Shown here piece after piece: positions 1 through 32,992 of a stretch of DNA of 64,000 nt (positions are counted from its first letter, which is position 1; each line of letters starts with the position of its first letter). The position numbers were made by a program, and so were the translations under genes. Origin of the DNA: Arenicellales bacterium (GTDB taxonomy: Bacteria > Pseudomonadota > Gammaproteobacteria > Arenicellales > JAJDZL01); assembly GCA_965220725.1 (NCBI GenBank), contig OZ244840.1, positions 1,408,548 to 1,472,547 on the forward strand, given 5' to 3'. Below the pieces are notes generated by a model. That model searched no databases. It was not told the origin of the DNA and saw only the letters and a program-made list of their open reading frames with translations.

Positions 1-8
1 GGTGTAAA

Positions 9-2241: not shown

Positions 2242-5200
2242 TTGATTTTCAAATCGAAAATACTGCGATTATTCGCATTCATCGGGTGCTTGCTGTGTGT
2301 TTCGGTTACTGCGTATCCCACAGCGGTATCGGGAAATGTACTGAAGTACACCTTCTCTGATGATGGTACGACCGTGACCATCACTGCCACGGGCAGGCTG
2401 GATGTCACGGATTTCGATATTGTTGCTCTGGATTCCATCCCGTCGGATTTTGAAAGAATCAGGATCGCCGACACACAGATCTGGGGGATTTTTCCGCCGT
2501 CACTGCAGCCCGAGCCCGAGACCCCGATCAGTCGCTACAGAGTACGTCCTGATTTTGTGACTACCGGCAGGGATTCGTACGATGGTACACCCGAGTTGGA
2601 CGGGTTGAGCAACTACGCCTACGATTCCAATTACCATATTCAGTTCAGCACCTGGTCAGAGCGGTTGGAGTTGGACAGCGACCATCTGACGGGGAACATC
2701 TACCAGATTTCGGACGGAGTGACGACGTTCACGGGAAGGTTGTATGACACCGATACCACAATCAAACAACTCGGAGACAATGATTTCCATATCGAGAATG
2801 CGATTGGCAGTCAGAAGATCATTTTCACAACCCGGACCAGCCTGACCCCGAGTTTCGGCACCGCGACGGTGGCTGATCAGAGTTACACGCAAGGCCGGGC
2901 CATCAGTGACCTCCAGTTGCCGGCGGCGAGCGGTGGCGATGGCACGCTGAGCTATTCGGTTATTCCGGCATTGCCGGCAGGGTTGTCGTTTGATGCAACG
3001 AGTCGCAAGATTACAGGCACACCGACTGCCGCACAGGCGGCGACCGAGTACACCTATTCCGTGATTGATACCGACGGCGACATCGCGTTGCTGAAGTTCA
3101 TGATCACGGTGGTGCAACAGCCGCACACGCTGAAGTACACCTTCTCTGATGACGGCACGACCGTGACCATCGCTGCCACGGGCAGGCTGGATGTCACGAA
3201 TTTCACTTTTGTTCGGGATGGCGTCCCGGGGGACTATTCACGAATCAAATTCGACGACACAGGGATCTGGGGGATTCATCCGCCGTCGCAGCCCACCACC
3301 CAGGCCAGACGCTACGACGGACTTCCTGATTTTGTGACTACCGGTGAGGATACCTACGGTGGTACATCCGAGTTGGACGGGTTGAGCAACTACGCCTACG
3401 ATTCCAATTACCACATTCGGTTCAATACCTGGCTCAAGTATCTGGAGCTGGACAACGGGCGTCTGACGGGAAACATCTACCAGATTTCGGACGGAGTGAC
3501 GACGTTCACGGGAAAGTTGTATGACACTGATACCACAATCAAACAACTCGGAGACAATGACTTCCACATCGAGCATGCGATTGGCAGTCAGAAGATCATT
3601 TTCACAACCCGGACCAGTCTGACACCGAGTTTCGGCACCGCGACGGTGGCTGATCAGAGTTACATGCAGAACCAGGCGATCAGTGAGTTGCAGTTGCCGG
3701 CGGCGAGCGGTGGCGATGGCACGCTGACCTACTCGGTCATTCCGGCATTACCCACAGGGTTGTCGTTTGATGCAGCGAGCCGCAAGATAACAGGCACACC
3801 GACTGCTGCACAGGCGGCGACCGAGTACACCTATTCTGTGACTGACACCGACGGCGACATCGCGTTGCTGAAGTTCATGATCACGGTGGTGCAGCGGCCG
3901 CACACGCTGACATTCACGTTCTCTGACAATGGCACGACCTCGACCATTGCGGCCTCGGGCAGTCTGGATGTTTCGGGTTTCACTTTTGACCGGGATCTGG
4001 AACAGCGGACAACTTTGAATCTCAAGATCGACGATACGGGTATCTGGGTGATTCATCCACAGCACCAGAACATCATCAATGTTTCGAAGAGTCGCTATAA
4101 GGATCTTCCGGCCTTTGTGACCACCGGCGGGGATACCTATACGGGCAGTACTGAAGTCCAGAATCTCAGCAACTATACCCAGCATGACTTCGCCATCAGG
4201 TTCAGTCCTTCGGGTAGGTATCTGGAAATCGACAAGGCGAACCTGACCGGTGGTATCTACGATCTTACGGGCGAATCGGCGACGTTCACGGGTACGTTGC
4301 TGAGTACCCTCAAAGACAATGACTTTCACATCGAGCATGCGATTGGGATTCACAAGATCATTTTCACGACGCCGGTTTATTTCGGCAATGCGACGATTGG
4401 CAATAAGACATACACCAAGGGTAAGGCGATCAGTGATTTTGAGCTGCCTCAGGCGCGCAGCAGCGACGATCAGACGGTATCTTATTCGATCAGCCCGGAT
4501 TTGCCTGCCGGGTTGTCATTCAATGCTGCGAGCCGCAAGTTGACGGGCACCCCGACTGTGGTGCAGGCAGCCACCGAGTACACCTACACAGCGATGGATT
4601 CGGACGGCGACACTGCGACGCTGACGTTCGAGATCACGGTGTTGCAGCCGCGTACGTTGAGGTTCACCTTCTCCGATGACGGCACAACCACGACGATTGC
4701 CGCTGCGGGCAGCCTGGATGTTTCGGGCTTCAAAATCGATAAGGAGGATACGCAGCCGGCTGACGATGATTATCTCAAAATAGCCGATACCGACCGCTGG
4801 GCGATTTATCCGCCGATTACCAACTACAATGTTCCGCTGAGGCGCTATAAGGATCTTCCGAACTTCGCGACCACCGGCAGGAGCAGCTATACAGGCCATG
4901 ATGAAGCCCGTAGTATGCCAAACTACTCCAACGAGTTTACCATCCGATTCCACACCCATCTCAAGTGGATGGAAGTTGACAAGGCGAGCCTGACTGGAGA
5001 TATCTACAATCCCTCGGGCAAGAAGGTGACATTCACCGGCACGTTGCTGAACACTCTCGATGACAATGACTTCCACATCGAGTTTGCGATCGGTCACCAG
5101 AAGATCATCTACACGACGAGGCCCAACAATACGCCGGACTTTGGTGTTGCGACAGTTGCCGATCAGGCTTACGTGAAAGATGAGGCGATCAGCGAACTCC

Positions 5201-8200
5201 TGCTGCCGGCGGCGACCGGTGGTGATGGCACGCTGAGCTATTCGATAAGCCCGGCCCTGCCCGCAGGACTGTCGTTTGATGATGTGAGCCGCAAGTTGAC
5301 AGGCACACCGACAACAGATCAGGCGGCGACTGAGTACACCTACACTGCGAGCGATGACGAGGAGGACACTGCGACACTGACGTTCAAGATTTCGGTGGTG
5401 CCGGTACCGGACAAGCCGTCTGGTTTCAGTGCGGTTGGAAACAACGGACAGGTGAGCCTGCGCTGGGTCAATCCGCGCAACAGCCTGATCACGAAATACC
5501 AGTACCGGCAACGAGTCGGCAGCGGGAATTTTGGTGCCTGGGAGGACATGTCGGACAGTGATGCGAATACCACCAGTCACACGGTGACCGGACTGACCAA
5601 CGGCACCGGCTACAGTTTCAGGATCCGGGCGGTGATTTCCCAGGTCAACGGAGTCGAGTCGGATGTGGTCACCGCAACACCCCAATTGATGCAGCCGGCA
5701 AAACCGACGCGGTTGTATGCATCCGTGCCGGCGACAGGTTCGGTTGACTTGCACTGGGTTGCGGTTGATGCGAGTGCGACCAGTTGGGAATACCGTAAAC
5801 GGTTCGAGGTCAGGCGAGGAACCGACGGGACACTGGTACGGCAGGATGACTATGAGAACTGGACTGCGGTGACCAACAGCACTTCAACCACCCGTATGGT
5901 TCAGGTCACCGGGTTGGAGACCGGTGTCAATCTGGGAAGCGGTGAGGAAGGCTGGTATCGGTTCCAGGTCCGTGGAAAGAATTCACAGGGGGTGGGATCG
6001 GCGTCCGATGAGGTTCAGGCGCGGCCGGTCATTGAGACGGATCTTTTCGGACCGGGTTATTCTGAACAACCCCAACGCTTCACGATTATTTCCGGACAGC
6101 ATACCACCTACATCCATCCGTCAATCATTAACCTGCATACGACGGAAGCCAATCCTAGTATGACTATCAGGGTGGAACCCGTAACCATCACACATACGTT
6201 CAAACCACAGGTTGACGGATGGATACCTAGTCATAGTGCGGACCTTCATCGCCAGGCACACACGTTCTCGGGTACACACAACGGTGCCACGACGAATCCG
6301 CTGGCTGGAACGGCGTCAGTCCGTGCGGGTGGGTTTCAAAGAGGTTCAGTGAATTTTTATTTCAGCTGGCTTGTGCCTCCTGATGCACCGACTTCAGTGT
6401 CTGTGGCAGCCGCCGGCAGTGGCCGTGCATTGCTGAGCTGGGGTGATTTACCCTCAACAACGCACGAGCCGATACGCAATGCGATCAGTTACTGGGAATA
6501 CCGCTCCAAGGAATCGACAGCCACAGACTATACGGCTGACTGGAAACGGGTGGCTGGCAGCTCCGGGGCAACCCGCAGTCATCTTGTCACCGGTCTCGAC
6601 GACAGCAAGTCCTATGATTTCGCAGTGCGGGCGGTGATCGACGCGGCCCGCGTCGACAACCTGATCCGACCGGACGACCCGACCGCGGACATCGTCTTGG
6701 AAGGCTCGGCGGCAACCACCAGTGAGTCGTTCACTCCGGGTGAAGGGGTGGCGGCCGTGTTGGTCAATATCCCGTCGCTTGCGGTGACAGAGGGTGCTTC
6801 GGTGACCTACACGGTGTCGCTGGGCAAGCAGCCGACTGCGGATGTGACGATCACACCTTCAAGCAGTGTCGCTGCACTTGCGAGTGTGTCTCCGTCCAGT
6901 CTGACCTTCACATCGTCCAACTGGGCGACCTCACAGACGGTGACGGTCACCGGTGTGGTGGACGATGATGGTGTGGGTGGAACAGCGACTGTGACGCACA
7001 GTTTGAGCAGCACGGATACGGATTATGCGGGACTGGCTGCTTTGGCATTGCCGAGTGTCTCGGTCACGGTGAGCGATGATGACACTCCCGATCTGACGCT
7101 GTCGGTGACCAGTCTTACCGGTCTGGATGAGGCAGGAACGCAGTCAAGGACTTACACGGTCAAACCGACGACCGCGCCGGCTTCGACGTTGACCGTGACG
7201 CCGCTGGCAGGGAGTTCGTCTGTGACACTGTCACCGGCCAGTCTGAGTTTTGATTCCAGCAACTGGGAGACGGCGCAGACAGTCACGGTGACCGGTGCAC
7301 AGGACGATGATGCAGTTGCAAATGATGTGCTGATCACGCATGGACTCAGCGGTCCGGCGGAATACAGTTCGTTGGATGGCACTGCGTATCAGGTGACAGC
7401 GGCGGTAAGTGATGATGACACGGCCGGTATTACAGCGCCGTTACCCGCCAGATTCAATCTGCGCGAAGGCAGCAGTTATGGGTATTCGGTTAAGTTGCAG
7501 ACCAAACCATCGGCAGCGGTGACACTGTCGGTCGGCAGCAGCAACACCAATGCGGTGACTGGCGGTTCAGTGACCTTCACACCAGGCAACTGGTCAACAC
7601 CGCAGACATTGACGATCACCGCGGTGGATGATGCGACTGCCACATCAGCGGTGCTGACGCGCAGTCTCAGCGGTGCGGCCGAGTATGCGGCATTGACGCT
7701 GTCATCGGTAACGGTGGACGTGATCGACAATGACAGCCCCGGACTGGTGGTGTTCACCAATACCCTGGCGATGATCGAGGCAGGTGATGATGCCAGCTAT
7801 ACCGTTTCACTGGCGACCCAGCCGACAGCCGACGTGACACTGACGGTGACCAGTGGCGATTCAACGCTTGCGCAGGTGTCGTCCGACACCGGATCCACCA
7901 AAACCTTCTCCGGCAGCGCTGATCTGACGTTCACGAATTCGAATTGGTCGAGCGCACAGACAGTGACGGTACGCAGTCCTGTTGATGAAAACTCAACCGA
8001 TGACAGCGTGACGCTGACCCACACCGCGGTGTCAACGGATTCAGATTACAACGCAGCAGACTTCAGTGCAGCGAATGTAACGGTGAGCATTACAGATGTG
8101 CCGGCACCAGCCAAACCCACGGATTTCAAGGCGAAACCGGGTAACACCGAGGTGACGCTGAGCTGGTCTGATCCATCCAACGACACCATCACGAAATACC

Positions 8201-11200
8201 AGGTGCGACACAAGGCTGGCTCGTCGTTTGATGACACCGCCACAGATGACGCCCTGTGGACAGACATTACAGGAAGCAACGCTGATACCACCGCGTATAA
8301 GTTGACCGGTCTCACCAATGGCACGCAGTACGTGTTTCAGATTCGGGCGGTGAATGCTGGTGGAAGTGGAATCGCGTCAGATGCATTGACCACGGCACCT
8401 CAGACACCTCCGCCTGCACCAACCGACTTTGCAGCGAAGGCGGGTGATGCGAAGGTGACGCTGACGTGGTCTGATCCATCCGACAGCAGCATCACGAAAT
8501 ACCAGGTGCGCCACAAGCAAGGCGAGTCGTTTGACAATACCACTGCCGATGATGACCTGTGGGCTGACATTCCGGAAAGTGATAGTGAGACCACAGAGCA
8601 CATCGTGATGAATTTGGACAACGATACGAAGTATGTGTTCCAGATTCGGGCGGTGAGGTCCGGCGTTGCGGGTGCTGAAACCGCAGCTGCGACGGCAACA
8701 CCAATTGCGGTACCGAAGAAGCCGTCTGGCCTCAGCACCATTGTGAATAGCATGCAGGTGAAACTGATCTGGAACCACCCGCAGGACAGTAGCATAACAA
8801 AATATCAGTACAAGCGCAGATTAGGCAATGGTCCATATTCTGTGGAGTGGGTTGACATGACGGGCAGCAATGCGCAGACCACTGAGTATCTGTTTACCGG
8901 ACTGCCCAATTACAATCGTTTCAGTTTCAAGATCCGGGCAGTCAATGCCAGTGGAGGTGGAGCCGAGTCCGATGTAGTGACTGCGCAACCCGAGATATTA
9001 CAGCCGGCAAAGCCGAAGCGATTGCACGCAGTCGTTCCGGTGACCGGGACTGTCGATTTGCACTGGGTTACCGTTGATGCGAGCTCGACCAGTTGGGAGT
9101 ATCGAAAACGGTTCGAGGTGCGACGTAGCAACGGGACACTGGTACGGCAGGAAGATTACGGGAACTGGACTGCGGTGACTGACAGCACCGTGACTACACG
9201 TTCGGCTCAGATAACCGGGTTGGAAACTGGAGCCAATCTGGGCTCCGACGAGCAGGGCTGGTATCGATTCCAGGTTCGTGGAAGGAATTCACTGGGGATG
9301 GGTCCGGCTTCCGATGAGGTTGAGGTGCGACCGGTTCAGATCGACGAGACTATACTTCAGGGGCCTGGCAATACCACACAAACCCAAAAATTCACGATAG
9401 TATCCGGGCAGTACACCACCTACACCTATCCTTCAATTATCAACCCGAATACAACGACGTCTGGTGCCAGAGTAACCATGCTGGTAAGAAACAAGCCCTC
9501 TGCCGTCAAAGAGACCTTTGAGCCACAGGCAACTGAATGGATGTTGGGTCAGAGTAAGGAAATTCTTCGCCAGGTACACACATTCTGCTGCACGCATCAC
9601 GGTGACACAGCAAACCCGCTGGAAGTGCAGGGATCGCTCCGTTTGGGTCAGCAATTGGGAAATAGCGTGAGTTTTGAATTCAGCTGGCTTGCACCTCCTG
9701 ATGCACCGACTTCACTGTCTGCGGCGGCCGCTGGCAGTGGACGTGCGTTGCTGAGCTGGGGCGATTCAGCCTCAGCGCATGAGCCGATACGCAATGCGAT
9801 CAGTTACTGGGAATACCGCTCCAAGGAGTCGACAGCCACAGACTATACGGCCGACTGGAAACAGGTACCCGGCAGTACCCGAACAACCCGCAGTCATCTT
9901 GTCACCGGTTTGCTCGACAGCAAGTCCTATGATTTCTCGGTGCGGGCGGTAATCGATGCGGCCCGCATCGACAACCTGATCCGACCGGACGATCCGACTG
10001 CGGACCTCGTACTGGAAGGTGCGGCGGCAACCACCAGCGCATCGTTCACTCCGGGTACAGGTGCGGCGGCGGTGTTTGCCACGCCCTCGACACTTGCCGT
10101 GACCGAGGGCAGCACTACGACCTACACGGTGTCGCTGGGCAAGCAGCCGAGTGCAAATGTGACGATCACGCCTTCAAGCAGTGCCGCAGCGCTGGCGAGT
10201 GTGTCTCCGTCCAGTCTGACTTTCACAGCGTCCAACTGGGCGACATCACAGACGGTGACGGTCACCGGTGTGACGGACGATGATGGTGTCGGTGGAACAG
10301 CGACCGTGACGCACAGTTTGAGCAGCACTGATACGGATTATGCGGGATTGGCTGCTTCGGCATTGCCGAGTGTCTCGGTGACAGTAACCGATGACGATAC
10401 TCCCAGTCTGACGCTTTTGCCAACCAGTCTTACCGGTCTGGATGAGGCGGGAACGCAGTCAAAGACATACACGGTCAAACCGACAACCGCGCCGGCTTCG
10501 ACGTTGACCGTGACACCGCTGGCAGGGAGTTCGTCTGTCACGCTGTCACCGGCCAATCTGAGTTTTGATTCCACCAACTGGCAGACGGCGCAGACAGTCA
10601 CGGTGACCGGTGCACAGGACGATGATGCAGTTGCAAATGATGTGCTGATTACGCATGGACTCAGTGGTCCGGCGGAATATGGCTCGTTGGACGGTACTGC
10701 ATATCAGGTAACAGCGGCGGTAAGTGATGATGACACGCCCGGAATTGCAGCGCCGTTACCCACCAGCTTCAATCTACGCGAAGGGAGCGAATATGAATAT
10801 TCGGTTGTTTTGCAGACCCGACCATCGGCAGCGGTGACACTGTCGGTCAGCAGCGACAGCAATGCGGTGACTGCCAATTCGGTGACCTTCACACCGAGCA
10901 ACTGGGCAACACCACAGACGTTGACGATCACCGCAGTGGATGATGCGACTTCCACAGAAGCGGAGCTGACGCCCAGTTTCACCGGTGCGGCCGAGTATGC
11001 GGCGCTGACGCTGTCATCGGTAACTGTGAATGTGATCGACAATGACAGCGCCGGCCTGGTGGTGCTCACGAATGCTTTGGCGATGAGCGAAGCGGGTGAT
11101 GATGCCAGCTATACCGTTGCGCTCGCAACCCAGCCGACAGCCAATGTGACCCTAACCGTGACCAGTGGCGATTCGACGCTGGCGCAGGTGTCGGCCGATA

Positions 11201-15786: not shown

Positions 15787-16774
15787 CGGGCAGGCAGACC
15801 TGTCAATGCCATCTGTAGAGGTTCAGTGGCTGCGAAGGGTGATCTGCCAACACAAACGGCAACTGCTTCGAATGGTGCATCATATCGCCGGCAAATTGAC
15901 GGGATCACTTGATACAGGCAACCATTCACCTGCTCGCTGGGATGTATATTGTCCTTGATTCTCTCTCGTCTCGATGCGAGTCTTCTGAGGACTGCGAAGT
16001 GCACGTAGTCTCGACAAGACGGAAACTTTGTCCATCCGTCATTCAAAGCTGAATGCATTGACATTGTCGCAGGACAACTCGATGAGTCTTTGAAAATCAC
16101 CCGATGCCGAATTTCCACATCGATAAACGGAGTGCTCGTTCCATGGAATGGCAGTTGTGGGCGTTGTTCGCGACTGAAGTCTGATTCGAGAAATCACATG
16201 CAGATCATTGAATATTTTCAATAAAACCAAAGCCCGAAGACTAACAAGTAATGTTGTTTGTGTTAAAATGCACCTCGTCCTGCAGTAAAAGTTCTTTGGA
16301 AGTCGGAATTGTCCCGACCCATTGAGTTGCTGAGGCATTGAACTGGTTTGAAGAAGACAAACAACGGTTAATGGCATTTGGTTGTCAGAGAGTTCAATTA
16401 GTATGAGTTGACTCTCGACGAGCAGGATGCTGGCATGCGGTTGGTAAATGTAAAAATCATTTACACTGCCATCCAGACCTTAATTTGGGCACTTATATAT
16501 TTAAGTTGACAGTTAGGAATTCATTCTAATAATCCGAGTAAAATGACAATAATTGAAATATCATTCGAAAAATCTCGATCGGAATGATGAATATTTCCAA
16601 GATATTTTGTTCGTCCACTTAACTATATAAGCCCCTTAATTTGAGTTAGTCCTATTAATAATGAAGGAACATAGACCCAAGACGGGATGTAGAAGGTTAA
16701 AGCGATCCGGGCCATGGTCCAGACCTCTTTCTGTACCCGGTTCCTCTTCAACAAGCACAGGCCTTATCGACATG

Positions 16775-16990: not shown

Positions 16991-17367
16991 TTACCAGCAT
17001 CAGGGTGTATCGATGGTGGCTACCTTTCGAATCCATTGCTGTTTGATGCAAATCGGAACATTGGAGCTGAGTGAAGTTTCATATAGCGAGCGTTTGGCAG
17101 GTTTCGATTAATGATGGGTAACCTTAAGCACAATCTGCACTGTGAGGGATTGTCGATGGTTGACACGTCTAGGTTGAACATCCGGCAATCACGGATATCG
17201 TTCGCGTCTGGATACGAGCGCCGGCGCGCAGAAGAAACCTACCAAGTGGGTCAGGAATCATACTCCGAGTGCAAGATGCAGGATGTCATCACCATACGCT
17301 GGAATTTGTATTCGGCATCCACTCATACGCAGGGCGATGCGTCATCGGTTGGGGCGGTTCGATAATT

Positions 17368-23300: not shown

Positions 23301-26300
23301 TTATCAGGTTCAGCAAAAATCCGGCACTGATGCCTACGGTGAGTGGGGCGACATTGAAGGCAGCACGGCGGCCACCACCAGCCACATATTGACCGGGCTG
23401 GACAACAATACGACGTATACCTTCCGCATCCGGGCGGTGAACGCCGGTGGTGTCGGTGCAGCGTCAGTTGAGGCGGCGGCGACGCCGATTGCGATACCGG
23501 CGGCACCGACGGGTTTGGTGGCGACCGCGGGTGATGCACAGGTGACGCTGGACTGGACGGATCCGGGCGACAGTTCGATCACAGGCTATCAGGTTCAGCA
23601 AAAGTCGGGCAGCGATGACTACGGTGAATGGAGCGCCATTGCGAACAGCACGGCGACCACCACCAGCCACACGGTGACGGGGCTGGACAACGATACGGCG
23701 TATACCTTCCGAATCCGGGCGGTGAATGCCGCTGGAGGAGGAGAGGCGTCGGCTGCGGTGACGGCGACACCGATTGCGGTACCGGCGGCGCCGACGGAAT
23801 TCAAAGCCAAGGCGGGTGATACACAGGTGACGCTGAGCTGGGCGGATCCCGACAACAGTACGATCACGGGCTATCAGGTTCAGCAAAAGTCAGGTGATGA
23901 CGCCTACGGCGCGTGGAATGACATTGAAGACAGCACGGCGACCACCACTGAGCACACGGTGACGGGTTTGACCAACAACACAGTGTATGGATTCAGGGTT
24001 CGTGCGGTGAATGCCTCCGGCGAGGGTGCCGCGTCACAGGAGGTGTTGGAGACACCGGTGACGATACCAGCGGCGCCGACGGGTTTGACGGCGGTGGCAG
24101 GCGATGCGCAGGTGACGCTGGGTTGGACGGATCCGGGCAACGCCAGCATCAACAACTATCAGTACCAGTCCAAGTCCGGCAGTGATGGCTACGGTGCATG
24201 GACGGACATGATGGACAGCGGCGCCGCGACCGTCAGTTACAAGGTGACGGGACTGGTCAACGACACCGCGTATACCTTCCGCATCCGAGCGGTGAACGAC
24301 ACCGGCGAGAGTCCGGAATCGGCTGAGGTGACGGCGACGCCAATCGCGTTGCCGGCGGCACCGACGGGGCTGACGGCGACAGTGGGTGATGCGCAGGTGA
24401 CGCTGGGCTGGACGGATCCTCAAAACAGCACGATCACGGACTATCAGTATCAGTACAAGTCAGGCAGCGATGATTACGGTGCATGGACTGCGATGATGGG
24501 CAGCACCGCGACCACCACCAGTCACCTGGTGACAGGGTTGGTCAACGACACGGCCTACACGTTCCGGATTCGGGCGGTGAATGCCAGTGGAGAAGGAGCG
24601 GCATCAGCTGAGGTGACGCAGACGCCGATTGCAGTGCCATTGGTGCCGACTGGGTTGACGATCGCGAAGGGCGATGCGCAGTTGACACTGGGCTGGACAG
24701 ATCCTCAGAACAGCACAATCACTGGTTATCAGTATCAGTACAAGTCGGGCAGCGATGATTACAGTGCATGGACTGCGATGATGGGCAGCACCGCGACCAC
24801 CACCAGCCACCTGGTGACAGGGTTGGTCAACGAAACGGCCTACACGTTCCGGATTCGCGCGTTGAATGCGAGTGGAGCGGGAGCGGTTTCGGCTGAGGTG
24901 ACGCAGACACCGATTGCGGTGCCGGCGGCGCCGACGGGATTGACGGCTGCGGTGGGCGATGCGCAGGTGACGCTGGGCTGGACTGATCCTCAAAACAGCA
25001 CGATCACGGGCTATGAGTATCAATACAAATCCGATAGCAGTACCTACGGTGCCTGGACGGCGATGACGCCCAGTACCGCGACCACCATCAGCCACCTGGT
25101 GACAGGGTTGGTCAACGAAACGGCCTACACGTTCCGGATTCGCGCGTTGAATGCGAGTGGAGCGGGAGCGGTTTCGGCTGAGGTGACGCAGACACCGATT
25201 GCGGTGCCGGCGGCGCCGACGGGATTGACGGCTGCGGTGGGCGATGCGCAGTTGACGCTGGGTTGGACCGATCCTCAGAACAGCACGATCACGGGCTATG
25301 AGTATCAATACAAATCCGGCACCGGTACCTACGGTGCCTGGACGGCGATGGCGAACAGCACTGCGACCACCACCAGTCACCCGGTGACGGGGTTGGTCAA
25401 CGAAACGGCCTACACGTTCCGGATTCGCGCGTTGAATGCGAGTGGAGCGGGAGCGGTTTCGGCTGAGGTGACGCAGACACCGATTGCGGTGCCGGCGGCG
25501 CCGACGGGATTGACGGTGGCGGTAGGCAACACGGAGTTGGTGTTGAGCTGGACGGATCCAGGCAACAGCACGATCACGGGTTATCAGTATCAGTACAAGT
25601 CCAGCGGTAATGCCTACGGTGCCTGGATGGCGATGACGCCGAGCACCGCGACCACCACCACTCACACGGTGACGGGGCTGACCAATAATACGGCCTACAC
25701 TCTGCGGATTCGGGCGCTGAATGCGAGTGGAGAGGGTGCAGTGTCGGCCGAAGTAACACAGACGCCGATCGCGGTGCCGGCGGCACCGACGGGTCTGACG
25801 GCAGCGGTTGGCGACACGGAGTTGGTGTTGAGTTGGACGGATCCGGGCAACAGCACGATCACGGGTTATCAGTATCAGTACAAGTCCGGCAACAGTGCTT
25901 ACGGTGCCTGGATGGCGATGACGGACAGTACCGCGACCACCACCAGTCACACGGTGACGGGGTTGGTCAACGGTACGGCCTACACGATCCGGATTCGGGC
26001 GTTGAATGCGAATGGAGAGAGTACGGCGTCGGCTGAGGTGACGCAGACGCCGATTGCGGTGCCGGCGGCGCCGACGGGACTGACGGCTGCGGTAGGAGAC
26101 TCGGAGTTGGTGTTGAGCTGGACGGATCCGGGCAACAGCACGATCACGGGCTATCAGTATCAGTCCAAATCCGGCAGTGGTACCTACGGTGCCTGGCTAC
26201 CCATGACAGGCAGCACTGCGACCACCACGAGTCATACGGTCATGGGGTTGATCAACGGCACAGCCTACACGTTCCGGATTCGCGCATTGAATGTCAGTGG

Positions 26301-29300
26301 AGACGGTGCGGTGTCGGCCGAGGTGACGCAGACGCCGATCGCGGTACCAGCGGCGCCGACGGGACTGACGGCTGCGGTAGGCGATGCGGAGTTGGAGTTG
26401 AGCTGGACGGATCCGGGCAACAGCACGATTACGGGTTATGAATATCAGTACAAGTCCGGTAACGGTGTTTACGGCGCCTGGATGGCGATGACGGACAGCA
26501 CCGCGACCACCACCAGTCACACGGTGTCGGGTTTGGTTAACGGTACGGCCTACACATTGCGGATCCGGGCGTTGAACGTCAGTGGAGCGGGAGCGGTGTC
26601 GGCCGAGGTGACGCAGACGCCGATTGTGGTACCAGCGGCGCCGACGGGTCTGATGGCTGCGGTAGGTGACACGGAGTTGGTGTTGAATTGGACGGATCCA
26701 GGAAATGGCTCGATCACAGGATATCAGTATCAGTACAAGTCTGGCAATGGTGCTTATGGTGCCTGGATGGCGATGACGGACAGCACCGCGACCACCACTA
26801 GTCACACGGTGACAGGTTTGGTTAACGGTACGGCCTACACGATCCGGATTCGGGCGTTGAACGTCAGTGGAGAGGGTGCGGCGTCGGCCGAGGTGACACA
26901 GACACCGATTGCGGTGCCGGCGGTACCGGTGGGATTGACGGCTGCGGTAGGCGATGCGGAGTTGTCGTTGAGCTGGACGGATCCGGGCAACAGCACGATC
27001 ACGGGTTATGAATATCAGTACAAGTCCGGCGGCGGTGCCTACGGCGCTTGGACAGCGATGACGGGTAGTACCGCGATCACCACCAGTCACATGGTGACGG
27101 GGCTGGTCAACAATACGGCCTACACTCTTCGGATTCGGGCGATGAATGTCAGTGGAGCAGGGACGGCGTCGGCCGAGGTGACACAGACACCGATTGCGGT
27201 GCCTGCGGCGCCGACGGGTCTGACGGCGGCGGTAGGCGATGCGCAGTTGTCGTTGAGCTGGACGGATCCGGGCAACAGCACGATCACAGGTTATCAGTAT
27301 CAGTACAAGTCCGGCAACAATGCCTACAGTGCCTGGACGGCGATGACGCCGAGCACCGCGACCACCACCAGTCACACGGTGACGGGTCTGGTCAACGACA
27401 CGGCCTATACGTTGCGGATTCGGGCGTTGAACGTCAGTGGAGCGGGTGCGGCGTCGGCCGAGGTGACGCAGACACCGATTGCAGTACCGGCGGCGCCGGC
27501 GGGTCTGACGGCTGCGGTAGGCGATGCGCAGTTGTCGTTGAGCTGGACGGATCCAGGCAACAGCACGATCTCAGGTTATCAGTATCAGTACAAGTCCGGC
27601 AACGGTGCCTACGGTGCCTGGACGGCGATGATGCCGAGCACCGCGACCACCACCAGTTTTACAGTGACTAGTCTCGTCAACGGCACAGCCTATACGATCC
27701 GGATACGGGCGTTAAATATCAGTGGAGCGGGTGCGGCATCGGCCGAGGTGACACAGACACCGATTGCGGTACCGGCGGCGCCGACGGGTCTGACGGCTGC
27801 GGTGGGCGACGCGGAGTTGTCGTTGAGCTGGACGGATCCGGGCAACAGCACGATCACGGGTTATGAATTTCAGTACAAGTCCGGCAATGGTACCTACGGT
27901 GCTTGGACGGCGATGACGGGCAGCACCGCGACCACCACCAGTCATACGGTGACGGGTTTGGTGAACGACACGGCCTATACGTTGCGGATCCGGGCGTTGA
28001 ACGTCAGTGGAGCGGGTGCGGCGTCGGCCGAGGTGACGCAGACACCGATTGCGGTGCCGGCGGCGCCGACGGGTCTGACGGCTGCAGTAGGTGATGCGAA
28101 GTTGTTGTTGAGCTGGACGGATCCGGGCAACAGCACGATCTCAGGCTATCAGTATCAATACAAGTCCGGCAATGGTGCCTATGGTGCCTGGACGGCGATG
28201 ACGCCGAGCACTGCGACCACCACCAGTCATACGGTGACGGGTCTGGTCAACGACACGGCCTATACGTTGCGGATCCGGGCGTTGAACGTCAGTGGAGCGG
28301 GTGCGGTGTCGGCCGAGGTGACACAGACACCGATCGCGGTGCCGGCGGCGCCGACGGGTCTGATGGCTGCGGTTGGCGATGCGCAGTTGTCGTTGAGCTG
28401 GACGGATTCAGGCAACAGCACGATCTCAGGCTATCAGTATCAGTACAAGTCCGGCAATGGTGCCTATGGTGCCTGGACGGCGATGACGCCGAGCACCGCA
28501 ACCACCACCAGTCATACGGTGACAGGTCTGGTCAACGACACGGCCTATACGTTGCGGATTCGGGCGTTGAACGTCAGTGGAGCGGGTGCGGCGTCGGCCG
28601 AGGTGACGCAGACACCGATCGCGGTGCCGGCGGCGCCGACGGGTCTGACGGCTGCGGTAGGCGATGCGGAGTTGGAGTTGAGTTGGACGAATCCTGGTAA
28701 CAATACGATCACGGGCTATCAGTATCAATACAAGTCCGGCAATGGTGCCTATGGTGCCTGGACGGCGATGACGCCGAGCACCGCGACCACCACCAGTCAC
28801 ACGGTGATGGGTCTGGTCAACGACACAGCCTATACGTTGCGGATTCGGGCGATGAATGTCAGTGGAGCGGGTGCTGCGTCGGCTGAGGTGACGCAGACAC
28901 CGATTGCGGTACCAGCGGCACCGACAGGTCTGACGGCTGCGGTAGGTGATGCAAAGTTGGAGTTGAGCTGGACGGATCCAAGAAACAGCACGATTACGGA
29001 CTATCAGTATCAGTACAAGTCCGGCAACGGCGCCTACGGTGCCTGGATGTCGATGACGGGCAGCAACTCGACCACCACCAGTCACACATTGAGAAGTTTG
29101 GTCAACGACACGGCCTACACGATACGGATCCGGGCGCTGAATATCAGCGGAGCGGGTGCGGTGTCGGCCGAGGTGACGCAGACGCCGATCGCGGTGCCGG
29201 CAGCGCCGACGGGCCTGACGGCTGCGGTAGGCGATGCGGAGTTGTTGTTGAGCTGGACGGATCCAGGCAACAGCACGATTTCAGGCTATCAGTATCAGTA

Positions 29301-31974
29301 CAAGTCCGGCAATGGTGCCTATGGTGCCTGGACGGCGATTACGGGCAGCACCGCGACAACCACCAGTCACACGGTGACAGGGCTCGTCAACGACACGGCC
29401 TACACCTTGCGGATTCGGGCGTTGAATATCAGTGGAGCGGGTGCGGTGTCAGCCGAGGTGACGCAGACGCCGATCGCGGTGCCGGCGGCGCCGGTGGGAT
29501 TGACGGTGGCGGTAGGCGACGCGCGGTTGGTGTTGAACTGGACAGATCCGGGCAACAGCACGATCACGGGCTATCAGTACCAGTACAAGTCCGGCAGCGG
29601 CACCTACGGAGCCTGGATGCCGATGACGGGCAGCACCGCGACAACCACCAGTCACCTGGTGACGGGGCTGGTCAACGACACGGCCTATGCTTTCCGGATT
29701 CGGGCGTTGAATATCAGTGGAGCGGGTGCAGTGTCGGCCGAGGTGACACAGACGCCGATCGCGGTACCGGCGGCGCCGACAGGTCTGACGGCGACGGGCG
29801 GCGATGAACAGGTGATACTGACCTGGACTGATCCGGGTAATCGTTCAATCACGGGCTATGAATTCCAGTACAAGTCCGGCAGCGGACCCTACGGTGCCTG
29901 GATGGACATCGAAAACAGTACGGCGTCAACTGTAAGTCACACGGTGGCGAACCTGACCAATGGAGTTCAATATGTGTTCAAGATCCGCGCGGCGAATGTG
30001 TCCGGTGATGGAGCTGAGTCAGTTGAAAAATCAGCGATACCGCAGCCACCAATACCGGCGGTACCGACAGGATTCACAGTGCAGGTTGGTGACAACCGGG
30101 CAACTCTCAGGTGGTCTATACCGACTAATACGACTTCGATTTCGAGAATTGAGGTTCGCCATCAGGTTAAGGGCGCGTCGGACTGGAGTGACTGGGTTCG
30201 GCTTTCTGCGACAACGACCGAGTATACGGTGACCGGTCTGGTGAACGGAGAGACCTATATCTTTGAGGTCCGCGCAGTGAATTCAACAGGCTCAGGAGAA
30301 GCGGCAACGAAGGAAGAGCGACTTCGCCTGACGGTGCCGGACAAGCCGACGGGGTTGAAAGCAGAGCTGGGTGACGCTGTAGTGAGTCTTAGCTGGGTAC
30401 TGCCGACCAATGTGAATGAAATCACCGGTGTGGAGGTTCGCCACAAGGAAGCTGCGACGTCAGACTGGAGCGTTTGGACGATGCTGCCGGCAGATGCGAC
30501 ATCTTACACAGTTTCGACTGGACTAGCCATAGGTGTAGTAAACACATTTGAGGTCAGGGCGGTCAACTCTGTTGGTAACGGTAGTGCAGCATCGATTGAT
30601 GCGACACCGGTTCTGAGAGGGTCGTTGATCGAAGAGAGTACCAGGGAAACTCTTCCAGAAGTGGCAGCCATTATGGGTAGCGAGATCGTATCCGGCATAA
30701 GGACTCGTATCCAGGGTTTCGATACGACTTCGGGTTCCGGTGGAGTGCGTTTCAATGCGAGGCACAACGAATTGTTCTCATCAGAAAAATGGAATGAACC
30801 GGTACAGTTGGATGAGCAAGGGTTCCTGTTTGATGGTCGGTTTGAGACGCTGGTGAATTCACTTGGTCAGTCGGCTGATGGCCGGCATGCATCGCCGGTT
30901 TCGATTTGGACCGGAGCTGCGCTAAAGCGGTTCAAAGACGACGGAGGTGCTTTGCAATACGATGGTGAGATGTCCAGCTACAGTTTCGGACTGGACACCA
31001 GGCTTGGCGAGAACACGCTGGGTGGTTTCACAATGTCGAGGTTCACCGGTAAGACGGATTATGAGCGCGAAGGCGCTTCTGGACGTCAACAGATCAATGT
31101 GACAAGTGTCAATCCCTATTTCGGTTTGAAGAAATCGGAGTATTCAGTGTGGTCTTTTGTTGGCGCTGGTTCGGGTGAATTGGAGGTGGAGCAGGACTTC
31201 GTGAGCGGTGTCAGCACCAGTGACCTGTCTTTGAATACGCTGGGTGTTGGTGCAAGTGGTGAAGTGTGGCGCAGTGCAAGAACAACATTGCACCTTACGG
31301 GTGAGATTACGGTAACCGAGTTGAGTGTGGATGGTTCGGACACGATCGATGCAGTGAAGGTCGGAGCCAATCGCAGTCGCATGATTCTGTCCGCCAGTCA
31401 GCGCTATCAGATGGACCGGGGCGGCTATGTGGAGCCGAAGTTCGAGTTTGGCGTGGCACACGACAGCGGAGACGGTTCTACCGGTAGCCGACTGGAGATT
31501 GGAGCCGGTATGTACTATCTGTCGCCTTCGCAACGGATATCGATGTCACTGTCATCCTATAGTCTGGTGGAACGGAACAATTACAGCGAGTGGGGAGTTG
31601 AGGCTGGTATTCGAATGTTGCCGGGAGCAAGGGAGCGTGGCTTGTCATTCAGTCTGCAACCTTCCTACGGCGCAACGGTACGAGGCGTTGATCGGATTTG
31701 GGAGTCCAGCCGAACGATTGGTGACGAGGTGGATGATGAAGTATATCGTCCTCGACTCGACGCAAATCTTGGTTTTGGAATACCTATTATTGGAAACAGA
31801 GGATTGTTGACACCTTACGGCGAAGCATCAGTTAAAGAGGACGATAAGACTTATCGCGTTGGAACCCGATTCAATAATGGTTCCGGCTTCGAGTTGAATC
31901 TGTATGGCGAGACCGAAGATTCGATAAGCGATACGCGGCGTTCAATCAGGTTGCAGGGTGGAATCCGATTCTAG
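17368..31974 (+). CDS. Giant autotransporter-type adhesin, paralog 2 (about 4868 aa from TTG 17368)
   Basis: The ORF is open from 17269. Alignment with paralog 1 places the signal peptide (LKSKISRLFAFIGCLLCFSVTA) at TTG 17368; the 33 upstream codons are not signal-like and align to the non-coding leader of paralog 1. N-terminal architecture matches paralog 1. Then come one super-repeat unit, 24 tandem FN3, 2 PTN-type FN3 and a C-terminal beta-domain ending ...LQGGIRF. Confidence 0.85.
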   Translation: MKSKISRLFAFIGCLLCFSVTAYPTVASGNVLKYTFSDDGTTVTITATGRLDVTDFNFVLDTIPSDYARIRIDDTQIWGIHPPLQQPATPIRRYSGLPDFVTTGRDTYDGTNELDTLSNYSSNYQIEFSTWSKRLELDTERLTGNIYQISDGVTTFTGRLYDTDTTIKQLGDNDFHIVNAIGSQKIIFTTQTSLTPSFGTATVADQSYMQGRAISDLQLPAASGGDGTLSYSVIPALPAGLSFDAASRKITGTPTAAQAATEYTYSVIDTDGDIALLKFMITVVQQPHTLKYTFSDDGTTVTIAATGRLDVTNFTFVRDGVPGDYSRIKFDDTGIWGIHPPSQPTTQARRYDGLPDFVTTGKDTYGGTSELDGLSNYAYDSNYHIRFNTWLKYLELDNGRLTGNIYQISDGVTTFTGKLYDTDTTIKQLGDNDFHIVHAIGSQKIIFTTRTSLTPSFGTATVADKSYMQNQAISELQLPAASGGDGTLTYSVIPALPTGLSFDAASRKITGTPTAAQAATEYTYSVTDTDGDIALLKFMITVVQRPHTLTFTFSDNGTTSTIAASGSLDVSGFTFDRDLEQRTTLNLKIDDTGIWVIHPQHQNIINVSKSRYKDLPAFVTTGGDTYTGSTEVQNLSNYTQHDFAIRFSPSGRYLEIDKANLTGGIYDLTGESATFTGTLLSTLKDNDFHIEHAIGIHKIIFTTPVYFGNATIGNKTYTKGKAISDFELPQARSSDDQTVSYSISPDLPAGLSFNAASRKLTGTPTAVQAATEYTYTATDSDGDTATLTFEITVLQPRTLRFTFSDDGTTTTIAAAGSLDVSGFTFDTDKQPTNDRFLSIANTDRWAIYPSTVVGINIPLRRYKDLPGFVTTGSDSYTGLDQVENLPNYSDEFTIRFHTHAKWLEVDKASLTGDIYNPSGKKVTFTGTLLSTLTDNDFHIELAIGHQKIIYTTTPNKTPDFGVATVADQTYVKDEAISELLLPAATGGDGTLSYSISPALPAGLSFDDVSRKLTGTPTTDQAGTEYTYTASDDEEDTATLTFKISVVPVPDKPSGLSAVGNNGQVSLRWVNPRNSLITKYQYRQRAGSGNFGAWEDMSDSDANTTSHTVTGLTNGTGYGFRIRAVISQVNGVESDVVTATPRLMQPAKPTRLHASVPATGSVDLHWVAVDASATSWEYRKRFEVRRGSDGTLVRQDSYENWTAVTNSTATTRTVQVTGLETGVNLGSGEEGWYRFQVRGRNSLGMGPASDEVQARPVLETGLFGPGYSEQPQRFTIISGQHTTYTYPSIINLHTTEANPSMTIRVEPVTITHTFKPQVDGWIPSHSADLHRQAHTFSGTHNGATTNPLAGTASVRAGGSQRGSVNFYFSWLVPPDAPTSLSAAAAGSGRALLSWGDLPSTTHEPIRNAISYWEYRSKESTATDYTADWKRVAGSSGATRSHLVTGLDDSKSYDFAVRAVIDAARIDNLIRPDDPTADIVLEGSAATTSESFTPGEGVAAVLVNIPSLAVTEGASVTYTVSLGKQPTADVTITPSSSVAALASVSPSSLTFTASNWATSQTVTVTGVVDDDGVGGTATVTHSLSSTDTDYAGLAALALPSVSVTVSDDDTPDLTLSVTSLTGLDEAGTQSRTYTVKPTTAPASTLTVTPLTGSSSVTLSPASLSFDSSNWQTAQTVTVTGAQDDDAVANDVLITHGLSGPAEYSSLDGTAYQVTAAVSDDDTAGITAPLPARFNLREGSSYGYSVVLQTKPSAAVTLSVGSSNTNAVTGGSVTFTPGNWATPQTLTITAVDDATATSAVLTRSLTGAAEYAALTLSSVTVDVIDNDSPGLVVFTNTLAMIEAGDDASYTISLTTQPTADVTLTVTSGDSTLAQVSSDTGSTKTFSGSADLTFTNSNWSSAQTVTVRSPVDGNSTDDSVTLSHTVASTDAGYNNVDLSASDITVSISDVPAPAAPTGLTATAGDAQVTLEWTDPGNSTITRYQVQQKSGTDAYGEWGDIEGSTAATTSHILTGLDNNTTYTFRIRAVNAGGVGAASVEAAATPIAIPAAPTGLVATAGDAQVTLDWTDPGDSSITGYQVQQKSGSDDYGEWSAIANSTATTTSHTVTGLDNDTAYTFRIRAVNAAGGGEASAAVTATPIAVPAAPTEFKAKAGDTQVTLSWADPDNSTITGYQVQQKSGDDAYGAWNDIEDSTATTTEHTVTGLTNNTVYGFRVRAVNASGEGAASQEVLETPVTIPAAPTGLTAVAGDAQVTLGWTDPGNASINNYQYQSKSGSDGYGAWTDMMDSGAATVSYKVTGLVNDTAYTFRIRAVNDTGESPESAEVTATPIALPAAPTGLTATVGDAQVTLGWTDPQNSTITDYQYQYKSGSDDYGAWTAMMGSTATTTSHLVTGLVNDTAYTFRIRAVNASGEGAASAEVTQTPIAVPLVPTGLTIAKGDAQLTLGWTDPQNSTITGYQYQYKSGSDDYSAWTAMMGSTATTTSHLVTGLVNETAYTFRIRALNASGAGAVSAEVTQTPIAVPAAPTGLTAAVGDAQVTLGWTDPQNSTITGYEYQYKSDSSTYGAWTAMTPSTATTISHLVTGLVNETAYTFRIRALNASGAGAVSAEVTQTPIAVPAAPTGLTAAVGDAQLTLGWTDPQNSTITGYEYQYKSGTGTYGAWTAMANSTATTTSHPVTGLVNETAYTFRIRALNASGAGAVSAEVTQTPIAVPAAPTGLTVAVGNTELVLSWTDPGNSTITGYQYQYKSSGNAYGAWMAMTPSTATTTTHTVTGLTNNTAYTLRIRALNASGEGAVSAEVTQTPIAVPAAPTGLTAAVGDTELVLSWTDPGNSTITGYQYQYKSGNSAYGAWMAMTDSTATTTSHTVTGLVNGTAYTIRIRALNANGESTASAEVTQTPIAVPAAPTGLTAAVGDSELVLSWTDPGNSTITGYQYQSKSGSGTYGAWLPMTGSTATTTSHTVMGLINGTAYTFRIRALNVSGDGAVSAEVTQTPIAVPAAPTGLTAAVGDAELELSWTDPGNSTITGYEYQYKSGNGVYGAWMAMTDSTATTTSHTVSGLVNGTAYTLRIRALNVSGAGAVSAEVTQTPIVVPAAPTGLMAAVGDTELVLNWTDPGNGSITGYQYQYKSGNGAYGAWMAMTDSTATTTSHTVTGLVNGTAYTIRIRALNVSGEGAASAEVTQTPIAVPAVPVGLTAAVGDAELSLSWTDPGNSTITGYEYQYKSGGGAYGAWTAMTGSTAITTSHMVTGLVNNTAYTLRIRAMNVSGAGTASAEVTQTPIAVPAAPTGLTAAVGDAQLSLSWTDPGNSTITGYQYQYKSGNNAYSAWTAMTPSTATTTSHTVTGLVNDTAYTLRIRALNVSGAGAASAEVTQTPIAVPAAPAGLTAAVGDAQLSLSWTDPGNSTISGYQYQYKSGNGAYGAWTAMMPSTATTTSFTVTSLVNGTAYTIRIRALNISGAGAASAEVTQTPIAVPAAPTGLTAAVGDAELSLSWTDPGNSTITGYEFQYKSGNGTYGAWTAMTGSTATTTSHTVTGLVNDTAYTLRIRALNVSGAGAASAEVTQTPIAVPAAPTGLTAAVGDAKLLLSWTDPGNSTISGYQYQYKSGNGAYGAWTAMTPSTATTTSHTVTGLVNDTAYTLRIRALNVSGAGAVSAEVTQTPIAVPAAPTGLMAAVGDAQLSLSWTDSGNSTISGYQYQYKSGNGAYGAWTAMTPSTATTTSHTVTGLVNDTAYTLRIRALNVSGAGAASAEVTQTPIAVPAAPTGLTAAVGDAELELSWTNPGNNTITGYQYQYKSGNGAYGAWTAMTPSTATTTSHTVMGLVNDTAYTLRIRAMNVSGAGAASAEVTQTPIAVPAAPTGLTAAVGDAKLELSWTDPRNSTITDYQYQYKSGNGAYGAWMSMTGSNSTTTSHTLRSLVNDTAYTIRIRALNISGAGAVSAEVTQTPIAVPAAPTGLTAAVGDAELLLSWTDPGNSTISGYQYQYKSGNGAYGAWTAITGSTATTTSHTVTGLVNDTAYTLRIRALNISGAGAVSAEVTQTPIAVPAAPVGLTVAVGDARLVLNWTDPGNSTITGYQYQYKSGSGTYGAWMPMTGSTATTTSHLVTGLVNDTAYAFRIRALNISGAGAVSAEVTQTPIAVPAAPTGLTATGGDEQVILTWTDPGNRSITGYEFQYKSGSGPYGAWMDIENSTASTVSHTVANLTNGVQYVFKIRAANVSGDGAESVEKSAIPQPPIPAVPTGFTVQVGDNRATLRWSIPTNTTSISRIEVRHQVKGASDWSDWVRLSATTTEYTVTGLVNGETYIFEVRAVNSTGSGEAATKEERLRLTVPDKPTGLKAELGDAVVSLSWVLPTNVNEITGVEVRHKEAATSDWSVWTMLPADATSYTVSTGLAIGVVNTFEVRAVNSVGNGSAASIDATPVLRGSLIEESTRETLPEVAAIMGSEIVSGIRTRIQGFDTTSGSGGVRFNARHNELFSSEKWNEPVQLDEQGFLFDGRFETLVNSLGQSADGRHASPVSIWTGAALKRFKDDGGALQYDGEMSSYSFGLDTRLGENTLGGFTMSRFTGKTDYEREGASGRQQINVTSVNPYFGLKKSEYSVWSFVGAGSGELEVEQDFVSGVSTSDLSLNTLGVGASGEVWRSARTTLHLTGEITVTELSVDGSDTIDAVKVGANRSRMILSASQRYQMDRGGYVEPKFEFGVAHDSGDGSTGSRLEIGAGMYYLSPSQRISMSLSSYSLVERNNYSEWGVEAGIRMLPGARERGLSFSLQPSYGATVRGVDRIWESSRTIGDEVDDEVYRPRLDANLGFGIPIIGNRGLLTPYGEASVKEDDKTYRVGTRFNNGSGFELNLYGETEDSISDTRRSIRLQGGIRF
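17461..20505 (+). repeat. Four tandem composite modules (unknown domain + cadherin-like Ig domain) in paralog 2
   Basis: Module starts are at 17461, 18235, 19012 and 19762. From module 2 onward they are collinear with paralog 1 at a constant offset of 15105 nt. Confidence 0.85.
23205..30045 (+). repeat. 24 tandem in-frame 285-bp (95-aa) FN3 repeat units
   Basis: I counted 24 successive units of the form PIAVPAAPTGLTAAVGDAxLxLSWTDPGNSTITGYQYQYKSGNGAYGAWTAMTxSTATTTSHTVTGLVNDTAYTLRIRALNVSGAGAxSAEVTQT. 24 x 285 nt equals the 6.84 kb span. Central units differ by only a few residues. Confidence 0.85.
30615..31974 (+). other. Putative linker plus autotransporter beta-barrel translocator region of paralog 2
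   Basis: Collinear with the paralog 1 C-terminus (RGSLIEESTRETLPEVAAIMG... to ...RSIRLQGGIRF). By eye it is only about two-thirds to three-quarters identical to paralog 1. Confidence 0.65.
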
Positions 31975-32985: not shown

Positions 32986-32992
32986 GCCAGGC

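Follow-up and report, generated by a model that had tools for sequence, protein, structure and literature searches.

A tandem pair of giant adhesin-like proteins in an Arenicellales bacterium with a predicted, enlarged type V-like C-terminal barrel

The 64,000-nucleotide stretch analysed here (hereafter the window; Arenicellales bacterium, GenBank assembly GCA_965220725.1, contig OZ244840.1, positions 1,408,548 to 1,472,547 of the forward strand) carries two neighbouring genes, A and B, encoding proteins of 4514 and about 4868 amino acids (aa), respectively. Sequence comparisons and a predicted structure of the C-terminal end of A make it probable that A and B are tandem paralogues and self-contained, type V-like giant fibrillar adhesins, in which a distinct and enlarged β-barrel serves as the chassis for a long chain of β-sandwich-size modules. 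The two genes and the elements defining their ends are as follows (ORF, open reading frame; pLDDT, predicted local distance difference test).

2242..15786, + strand: gene A, 4514-aa giant adhesin-like protein (TTG start, stop codon counted in; ORF list and translation)
2242..2334, + strand: signal peptide of A, aa 1-31 (MIFKSKILRLFAFIGCLLCVSVTAYPTAVSG, a basic then a hydrophobic stretch)
14434..14526, + strand: linker helix of A, 31 residues, aa 4065-4095 (AlphaFold2 helix at residues 21-51 of the last 470 aa, pLDDT ~90)
14710..15783, + strand: C-terminal β-barrel of A, aa 4157-4514, ~18 predicted strands, terminal Phe (AlphaFold2 strands at 113-468, pLDDT of the block mostly 80-98)
17368..31974, + strand: gene B, paralogue of ~4868 aa (probable TTG start at 17368; the maximal ORF, 17269-31974, has a GTG start and 4901 aa)
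17368..17454, + strand: signal peptide of B, ORF aa 34-62 (MKSKISRLFAFIGCLLCFSVTAYPTVASG, aligns with the signal peptide of A)
30622..30714, + strand: linker helix of B, ORF aa 4452-4482 (position taken from the alignment with A)
30898..31971, + strand: C-terminal β-barrel of B, ORF aa 4544-4901, terminal Phe (family alignments A1-A3)

An earlier note, made from the letters of the window alone, had described a pair of intact ORFs on the same strand, each with a Sec-type signal peptide, and both statements agree with what we find. A and B are uninterrupted ORFs of 13.5 kb and 14.6 kb in the ORF list, stop-free over 2242-15786 and 17269-31974, and each N-terminus shows the basic and hydrophobic stretches of a Sec-type signal, an assignment judged by eye on the sequence. 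A Shine-Dalgarno-like GGGGTGA lies just upstream of the start of A. The TTG at 17368 is the most likely start of B because its signal-peptide-like stretch begins at ORF residue 34 and because homology between the DNA of A and B extends to 86 bp ahead of these starts. A lipoprotein reading of the signal peptide (motif FIGC) was also considered; it may apply, although the stretch of hydrophobic residues preceding the Cys is short and the motif atypical.

Among the evidence for an outer membrane barrel is an AlphaFold2 model of the last 470 aa of A, computed from an alignment of 36 diverse family members (pLDDT 80.7; predicted template modelling score, pTM, 0.77). The model consists of a helix at residues 21-51, a disordered linker of variable sequence and 18 long strands at 113-468. 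Short turns connect the strands, apart from one longer loop at 371-397. For the strand number and linker helix that the earlier note had proposed to check, the model thus returns about 18 strands and a helix of 31 residues ahead of the barrel. Hydrophobic alternation peaks on most of the predicted strands in an alignment of 117 sequences. Counted from the conserved Trp of strand 1, the segment up to the C-terminus measures 355 aa in A, with a family median of 374 aa (range 342-410), compared to 261 aa from the equivalent IWLR motif of E. coli YcgV, making the barrel segment of A approximately 100 aa longer than that of YcgV. We read the model as a true outer membrane barrel with an autotransporter-like layout and a faint autotransporter signal in its first half, and as clearly larger than a 12-stranded domain.

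The ~450-aa C-terminal domain ending in Phe that had been claimed for the two proteins is present in both. A and B terminate in ...LQGGIRF, are 65% identical over their last 470 aa, and align throughout with the family (their public counterparts P0168 and P0037, described below, score 709 and 691 bits against the hidden Markov model (HMM) built on alignment A2). The family is defined by a match to its profile over the full domain at the extreme C-terminus, by the motifs NPY, WG..G.G.G, D.GD.ETG, (Y)EEWG and RGLSFSL.P and by a terminal W or F, a definition that A and B fit. A match to the autotransporter β-domain model PF03797, predicted at the C-terminus of both proteins, reached the cut-off of 26 bits in A alone and over half of the model only (32.9 bits; profile positions 4-124 of 255, aligned to residues 118-235 of the last 470); B remained below it at 22.7 bits. 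A search of NCBIfam with the C-terminal domain gave no match.

The same domain terminates many other large proteins. Its carriers were counted, using a barrel-only HMM, among the 150 best proteins of an exhaustive HMM search and the matches obtained earlier; as a whole, that search gave 56,007 matches, for the most part Calx-beta proteins drawn in by passenger columns of the alignment. The full domain was found in 123 proteins of 348 to 6313 aa (median 1898) and stood at the extreme C-terminus of 117 of them, where the last residue was W in 95 cases and F in 18. At least 38 family proteins have a signal-peptide-like N-terminus, and many of the others are truncated gene calls. The passengers of the family carry Calx-beta, cadherin-like, SWM_repeat, Big_5, Big_12 and fibronectin type III (FN3) domains. 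Most members share a strongly conserved WLxRFGRT in the pre-barrel helix (alignment A3), in place of which A, B and a third protein, P0001, have LIQQSVEEILPN (helix region, aa ~4065-4095 of A). Since only seven of the 36 diverse members touch PF03797 at E <= 10 (best E 2.1e-9) and ten touch the generic barrel model OMP_b-brl (PF13505), the family is without a curated model in the Pfam and NCBIfam copies searched. A view of the domain as rare, drawn from the 6 and then 11 matches of a word-indexed protein search, was rejected upon exhaustive HMM searching and genome scanning.

In GTDB, scanned at one genome per species, at least 475 stretches encode a confirmed relative of the barrel. The taxonomic survey covered the best 80 of these matches, ranked by similarity to the A/B query, and all 80 come from metagenome-assembled genomes (MAGs). 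The groups represented are Alpha- and Gammaproteobacteria, Nitrospirota, Nitrospinota, Acidobacteriota, Binatia, Thermodesulfobacteriota and Cyanobacteria. They include the named sponge-symbiont lineages Ca. Poriferihabitaceae, Ca. Spongiihabitans, Ca. Porisulfidus and Aphanocapsa feldmannii, whose origin from sponge metagenomes is confirmed by genome notes, as well as other proteobacterial MAGs (Paracoccaceae, Rhodospirillales, Chromatiales, Thiotrichales) and MAGs of Nitrospirales, Nitrospinales, Binatia, Thermodesulfobacteriota, Vicinamibacterales, Marinacidobacterales and Bryobacterales. From their naming pattern, we infer that the remaining MAGs are sponge-associated as well. Identity to A does not track taxonomy, standing at 38% in Nitrospinales, 37% in Alphaproteobacteria and only 29-30% in several Gammaproteobacteria, which is suggestive of horizontal exchange. 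The barrel-bearing ORFs in the loci of these relatives have lengths between 400 and over 3,800 aa, 17 of them running off the 10-kb flank, and clustering of all flanking ORFs of the 80 loci revealed no partner gene recurring across organisms. The undescribed and unusual surface system that the earlier note had suspected stands as regards its layout, and the barrel family and its distribution appear to be new; it does not stand as a unique oddity, the barrel being found on hundreds of large MAG proteins.

A more far-reaching proposition, which we advance tentatively and hold to be possible rather than probable, is that the C-terminal domain represents an undescribed type V-like class, in which a helix and a ~18-stranded barrel would export and hold megadalton β-sandwich strings without a partner protein. 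Such a class would have spread horizontally among at least seven phyla of sponge symbionts and would provide them with a common means of displaying "eukaryotic-like" adhesion domains to the host.

Three sets of relatives were observed in addition. An alphaproteobacterial MAG of Thermohalobaculum sp. (loci L003-L010, L012, L018, L068 and L082) encodes at least 13 barrel genes whose products reach more than 3,700 aa and are 37% identical to the barrel of A; several of these genes have nearby ORFs resembling, by eye, insertion sequence transposases or integrases. The closest relative outside the lineage of the window (L001, positions 1-12241; barrel 56% identical) lies on an ENA long-read contig of 4.9x coverage, where the barrel ends three consecutive same-strand gene calls of 10,234, 1,201 and 746 aa, probably the pieces of a single protein exceeding 12,000 aa that sequencing frameshifts have broken up. 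In a Chromatiales MAG (L055), a 996-aa barrel gene (2976-5966) lies ~9.6 kb upstream of glyQS (15573-15959), whose product shares 68% aa identity with the copy in the window; the arrangement recalls the window, where the distance is 13 kb, and no other common neighbour was found between the two loci.

Between the signal peptide and the C-terminal domain, a jackhmmer self-similarity map divides the passengers into modules of β-sandwich size, approximately 36 in A and 42 in B, arranged as follows.

2335..5415, + strand: distal "tip" of A, aa 32-1058, 4 x [N-module of ~159-169 aa + He_PIG of 92 aa] (jackhmmer self-map; He_PIG is PF05345)
5416..14427, + strand: stalk of A, aa 1059-4062, with 15 FN3, 2 X-modules, 10 "Calx-like" modules and one unassigned stretch (domain map, Pfam fn3)
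aa 1265-1381 and aa 2369-2487 of A, + strand: X-modules (orphan, ~117 aa; domain map)
aa 3156-3286 of A, + strand: stretch of ~130 aa without assignment (domain map)
17455..23202, + strand: tip and proximal stalk of B, ORF aa 63-1978, with 4 x [N-module + He_PIG], 3 FN3, one X-module and 4 Calx-like modules
23212..30615, + strand: FN3 array of B, 26 consecutive domains, ORF aa 1982-4449 (Pfam fn3, 27 stretches, 1126.9 bits)
23198-29902: tandem array in B, 285 bp x 23.5 copies, 84% matches (TRF), encoding FN3 domains

The signal peptide of A is followed by four pairs of an N-module and a He_PIG domain, two FN3 domains, an X-module, one FN3, four Calx-like modules and four FN3; a second X-module, one FN3, four Calx-like modules, one FN3, the unassigned 130 aa, two Calx-like modules and six FN3 then lead to the C-terminal domain. 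The block formed by FN3, X-module, FN3 and four Calx-like modules is thereby duplicated within A. B has the layout of A over its first ~1,950 aa and continues with its 26 FN3 domains, and an internal repeat relating positions 8708-11472 to 20507-23265 is 80% identical. The 285-bp array at 23198-29902 is a likely site of copy-number variation.

Pfam recognises 12 fn3 stretches in A, 27 in B, four He_PIG domains in each and nothing else substantial in the passengers. The modular content proposed at the outset was confirmed in this respect, as were the FN3 domains and the presence of two unrecognised modules; the "cadherin-like" beads proved to be He_PIG domains, PF05345 having been, like fn3, among the predicted Pfam matches, and the equally predicted Calx-beta model (PF03160) matched neither A nor B, nor did the cadherin models. 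The pertactin, AC_1 (autochaperone) and PATR models of Pfam were likewise without a match in the two passengers. The N-module and the X-module have no significant Pfam match, and neither occurs, A and B themselves excepted, among 172 family proteins or in the loci of the 80 relatives; for the N-module, a search of 5.8 billion proteins gave no homologue. The ~105-aa Calx-like module, also without Pfam assignment, is common to other members of the family, such as P0066, a 4592-aa protein made up of a signal peptide, Calx-like modules and the same barrel.

These elements are suggestive of the following mechanism. The Sec signal peptide would take the chain to the periplasm, where the β-barrel assembly machinery (BAM) would insert the C-terminal ~360-aa domain, predicted to fold as a β-barrel, into the outer membrane; the aromatic residue at the very end corresponds to a BAM β-signal. 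The conserved helix predicted upstream would connect the barrel to the passenger and may lie in the pore. As in type V systems, the 36-42 modules would be threaded out from the C- to the N-terminus and fold outside the cell, giving a fibre of ~130-170 nm if ~3.5-4 nm is assumed per module. By the logic of fibrillar adhesins, the four N-module/He_PIG pairs at the distal tip would be the likely ligand-binding end. The hosts of the family and the literature on eukaryotic-like domains make host extracellular matrix or host cells the probable target, with attachment to the matrix or its mimicry as the likely role. Sponge aggregation factors themselves contain Calx-beta domains, which makes mimicry plausible for those family members that carry Calx-beta.

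Several results weigh against this interpretation. The count of ~18 strands was taken from the DSSP string of a single AlphaFold2 model. Foldseek searches with that confident model returned LptD, TonB-dependent receptors and autotransporters mixed together at query TM-scores (TMq) of ~0.3, and thus only generic barrels. Searches of the PDB sequences with a single sequence and two profiles yielded no autotransporter; the A1 profile, passenger columns included, gave only Calx-beta. Alignment of the family with the β-domains of E. coli Ag43, YfaL, YpjA and YcgV by hhalign reached a probability of 0.6% over 57 columns (strands 1-3), weak negative evidence given the thin E. coli alignment of four sequences. 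Homology of the barrel to autotransporter barrels is accordingly weak at the sequence level, PF03797 being half-covered in A and sub-threshold in B. The upstream flank of A in the window is only 2.2 kb long, so that a partner gene just beyond its edge is possible. The sponge link was drawn from the 80 best of at least 475 matches ranked by similarity to the query and, among the matches listed, the closest GTDB species representative is only 37-38% identical.

Some of these results would suit a different explanation, namely that the barrel is a mere anchor or porin-like module and that the bead string is periplasmic or reaches the surface via a type II secretion system (T2SS), a Slam-like or translocation and assembly module (TAM)-dependent pathway, or an unlinked partner. 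A barrel of 18 strands fits no characterised type V translocator, ten of the 36 diverse members match the generic OMP_b-brl, and the short upstream flank leaves room for a partner. However, where the domain is C-terminal, as in 117 of the 123 proteins, it always follows repeats and the conserved helix, an arrangement typical of autotransporters and not of porin fusions. No partner gene recurs in the 80 loci, and no type I secretion system (T1SS), T2SS, TpsB, TamA or other secretion partner gene was found within the 30 kb downstream in the window. Nor would there be an obvious role in the periplasm for FN3, Calx-beta and cadherin-type arrays exceeding 4,000 aa. We regard a mere anchoring function of the barrel as unlikely.

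Could A and B, instead, be ordinary type Va autotransporters combining a 12-stranded PF03797 barrel, a pore-spanning helix and a very long immunoglobulin (Ig)-like passenger? The above-threshold PF03797 match in A, the helix directly ahead of the barrel and the terminal Phe would all be expected of such proteins, and Proteobacteria are known to have fibrillar adhesin-like proteins that use PF03797 as their anchor, catalogued already in large numbers (PMC8286594). An earlier AlphaFold2 model of low confidence (7 sequences, pLDDT 52) had, furthermore, placed only type Va barrels at the top of the Foldseek list (BrkA, 1.7e-8; Hbp, EspP, NalP and AIDA-I), a result we treat as a lead only. Against this, the confident model has ~18 strands over ~356 aa rather than 12 over ~260, and the strand-1 Trp lies farther from the C-terminus than in YcgV throughout the family. 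PF03797 is partial in A, sub-threshold in B and absent from 29 of the 36 diverse members; the hhalign comparison with the four E. coli β-domains was insignificant; and the autotransporter barrels retrieved by Foldseek cover only ~240-270 of the 470 residues at a TMq of ~0.31. Nor do the passengers match pertactin, autochaperone or PATR models. The canonical type Va β-domain of the earlier note was therefore not borne out, the PDB searches having produced no autotransporter, while the general layout (Sec signal, more than 4,000 aa of beads, helix and predicted C-terminal barrel) is in place. That A and B are ordinary type Va proteins appears to us very unlikely.

The remaining explanation, that the ORFs are artefacts of assembly or of repeats, or else pseudogenes in decay, and that their proteins are not made, could appeal to the 6.7-kb tandem array within B, to the 100%-identity tracts common to A and B and to the frameshifts in the relatives P0002 and L001 (low-coverage long-read contigs), but is extremely improbable in view of stop-free frames of 13.5 and 14.6 kb that could not survive by chance, array units that are only 84% alike and therefore assemblable, barrel motifs kept across distant relatives, and the public records. 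Under other start calls, P0168 is identical to A from residue 17 onwards and P0037 corresponds to B from residue 59 onwards (99.98% identical); a fragment of A with few substitutions, P0046, lies on a different contig, and P0002 is a frameshifted fragment of B. Because near-identical proteins or fragments occur in these other records, an assembly artefact is unlikely; on this sequence evidence, the ORFs of A and B are real and not a one-off assembly product.

The self-contained, type V-like reading of A and B invites comparison with the known secretion and adhesion systems. With type Va proteins (EspP, NalP, BrkA, Ag43; PF03797), A and B share the order of Sec signal, passenger, helix and C-terminal barrel with an aromatic end, the lack of a partner gene and a weak PF03797 match, which in A exceeds the cut-off and spans the first ~6 strands. 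They differ in that the type Va barrel has 12 strands and ~250-280 aa, whereas that of A has ~18 predicted strands and is ~100 aa longer; in that a type Va passenger is a β-helix with an autochaperone and theirs a chain of β-sandwiches; and in being 3-4 times longer than typical type Va proteins, with no detectable sequence relation to solved autotransporters. With more than 12 predicted strands and a marginal PF03797 match, A and B thus appear to be set apart from type Va. Type Ve proteins (intimin/invasin, PF11924) resemble A and B in uniting a barrel and a surface string of Ig-like domains in one polypeptide, but their 12-stranded barrel is N-terminal and the passenger C-terminal, whereas the barrel of A and B is C-terminal and does not match PF11924. 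Two-partner secretion (TPS; type Vb) relies on an N-terminal TPS domain and an adjacent TpsB; A and B have no TPS or ShlB-type match and no such gene downstream. The RTX/BAP adhesins of T1SS (LapA, SiiE, MpIBP) are similar in size, in their bead-string stalk and in their Calx-like/Ig-like repeats. They are, however, without a Sec signal and carry a C-terminal RTX region with a T1SS signal and an N-terminal retention module held in a TolC-like pore, while A and B have a Sec-type signal, a C-terminal barrel and no RTX match: HemolysinCabind was not matched in either protein, T1SS_rpt_143 reached only 13 bits (cut-off 66), and the window contains no T1SS genes.

In overall organization, A and B fit the definition of the fibrillar adhesin-like proteins, in which an anchor, repeated stalk domains and a distal terminal region are combined. 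A survey by Monzon, Lafita & Bateman (2021) lists PF03797 among their commonest anchors in Proteobacteria and finds about half of such proteins to be without a known anchor (PMC8286594). A and B differ from them in that the anchor belongs to an uncurated barrel family mostly missed by Pfam gathering thresholds and in that the putative tip is built of orphan modules. FN3, Calx-beta and cadherin domains are, in turn, reported to be enriched in sponge symbionts (PMC11706023). The "eukaryotic-like proteins" of these bacteria share the domain classes of the family, whose barrel relatives occur in MAGs including those of named sponge symbionts; the papers that we found on such proteins count domains and do not describe a common C-terminal barrel anchor. 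BapP of Pseudoalteromonas (PMC12153261), considered as a described counterpart, was rejected as a different protein without a barrel. In the literature, of which our coverage was incomplete, no description was found of a sponge-symbiont autotransporter or barrel of this kind. A bead-string passenger on a C-terminal barrel is in itself an already known idea. The apparent novelty lies in the uncurated barrel family, ~100 aa larger than type Va barrels and with a conserved helix; in its occurrence across many phyla, named sponge symbionts included, as the C-terminal end that giant repeat proteins have in common; and, in this locus, in the two orphan modules.

Type V secretion is taught as being built on 12- or 16-stranded barrels. 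If the proposal made here is correct, a self-contained, autotransporter-like protein in which ~18 strands carry Ig-like domains totalling more than 4,000 aa would broaden this scheme, and the helix and barrel joined to one FN3 domain would make a simple construct for studying how passengers of folded domains cross the outer membrane. To our knowledge, sponge-symbiont "eukaryotic-like" proteins of the FN3, cadherin and Calx-beta classes have featured in counts for years, with no mechanism known for their display. A barrel anchor common to many phyla would make the question of display directly testable and would give a single HMM marker for host-interaction proteins in metagenomes.

The DNA of the two genes is suggestive of their history. 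Their 5' 6 kb are 94.6% identical (blastn, 2156-8174 versus 17276-23279) and form a mosaic of tracts of 83-100% identity, with positions 3656-4555 being 100% identical in A and B beside tracts of 83-87% (sliding identity, 300-bp windows); the barrel regions are 69% identical. This mosaic suggests ongoing gene conversion between old tandem paralogues. The spacers at 735-2241, 15787-17367 and 31975-33011 are 1-1.5 kb long and AT-rich (44-45% GC versus ~55-60% in genes), and conservation between the spacers of A and B is confined to the final 86 bp ahead of each start. There is no gene-like ORF in the 1.5-kb spacer between A and B; the spacers gave no Rfam or tRNA match, and promoter and terminator scans stayed within chance.

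Directly upstream of the adhesin pair, a lipoprotein-like gene (9-734, - strand; MMRGIALALAILMSTSLVGC...) matches Spondin_N (PF06468) with 27.7 bits (cut-off 24), a domain of animal extracellular matrix proteins. Housekeeping genes follow downstream of the pair: ahcY, metK, ntrC, ntrB, glnA, a gene resembling thiI, genes for a DNA methylase and an EamA transporter, and a fused glyQS. The methylase, of the N6_N4 type (41779-42870, + strand), is overlapped by an ORF of 282 aa without Pfam match (42782-43630, + strand), and the two may form a restriction-modification pair. The α and β subunits of glycyl-tRNA synthetase are fused in one ORF of 1020 aa (45172-48234, + strand). Farther downstream, a gene at 60169-61395 (- strand) encodes a 408-aa protein with a Peptidase_M78 (ImmA/IrrE-like) domain, a type often tied to mobile elements or toxin-antitoxin-like modules.

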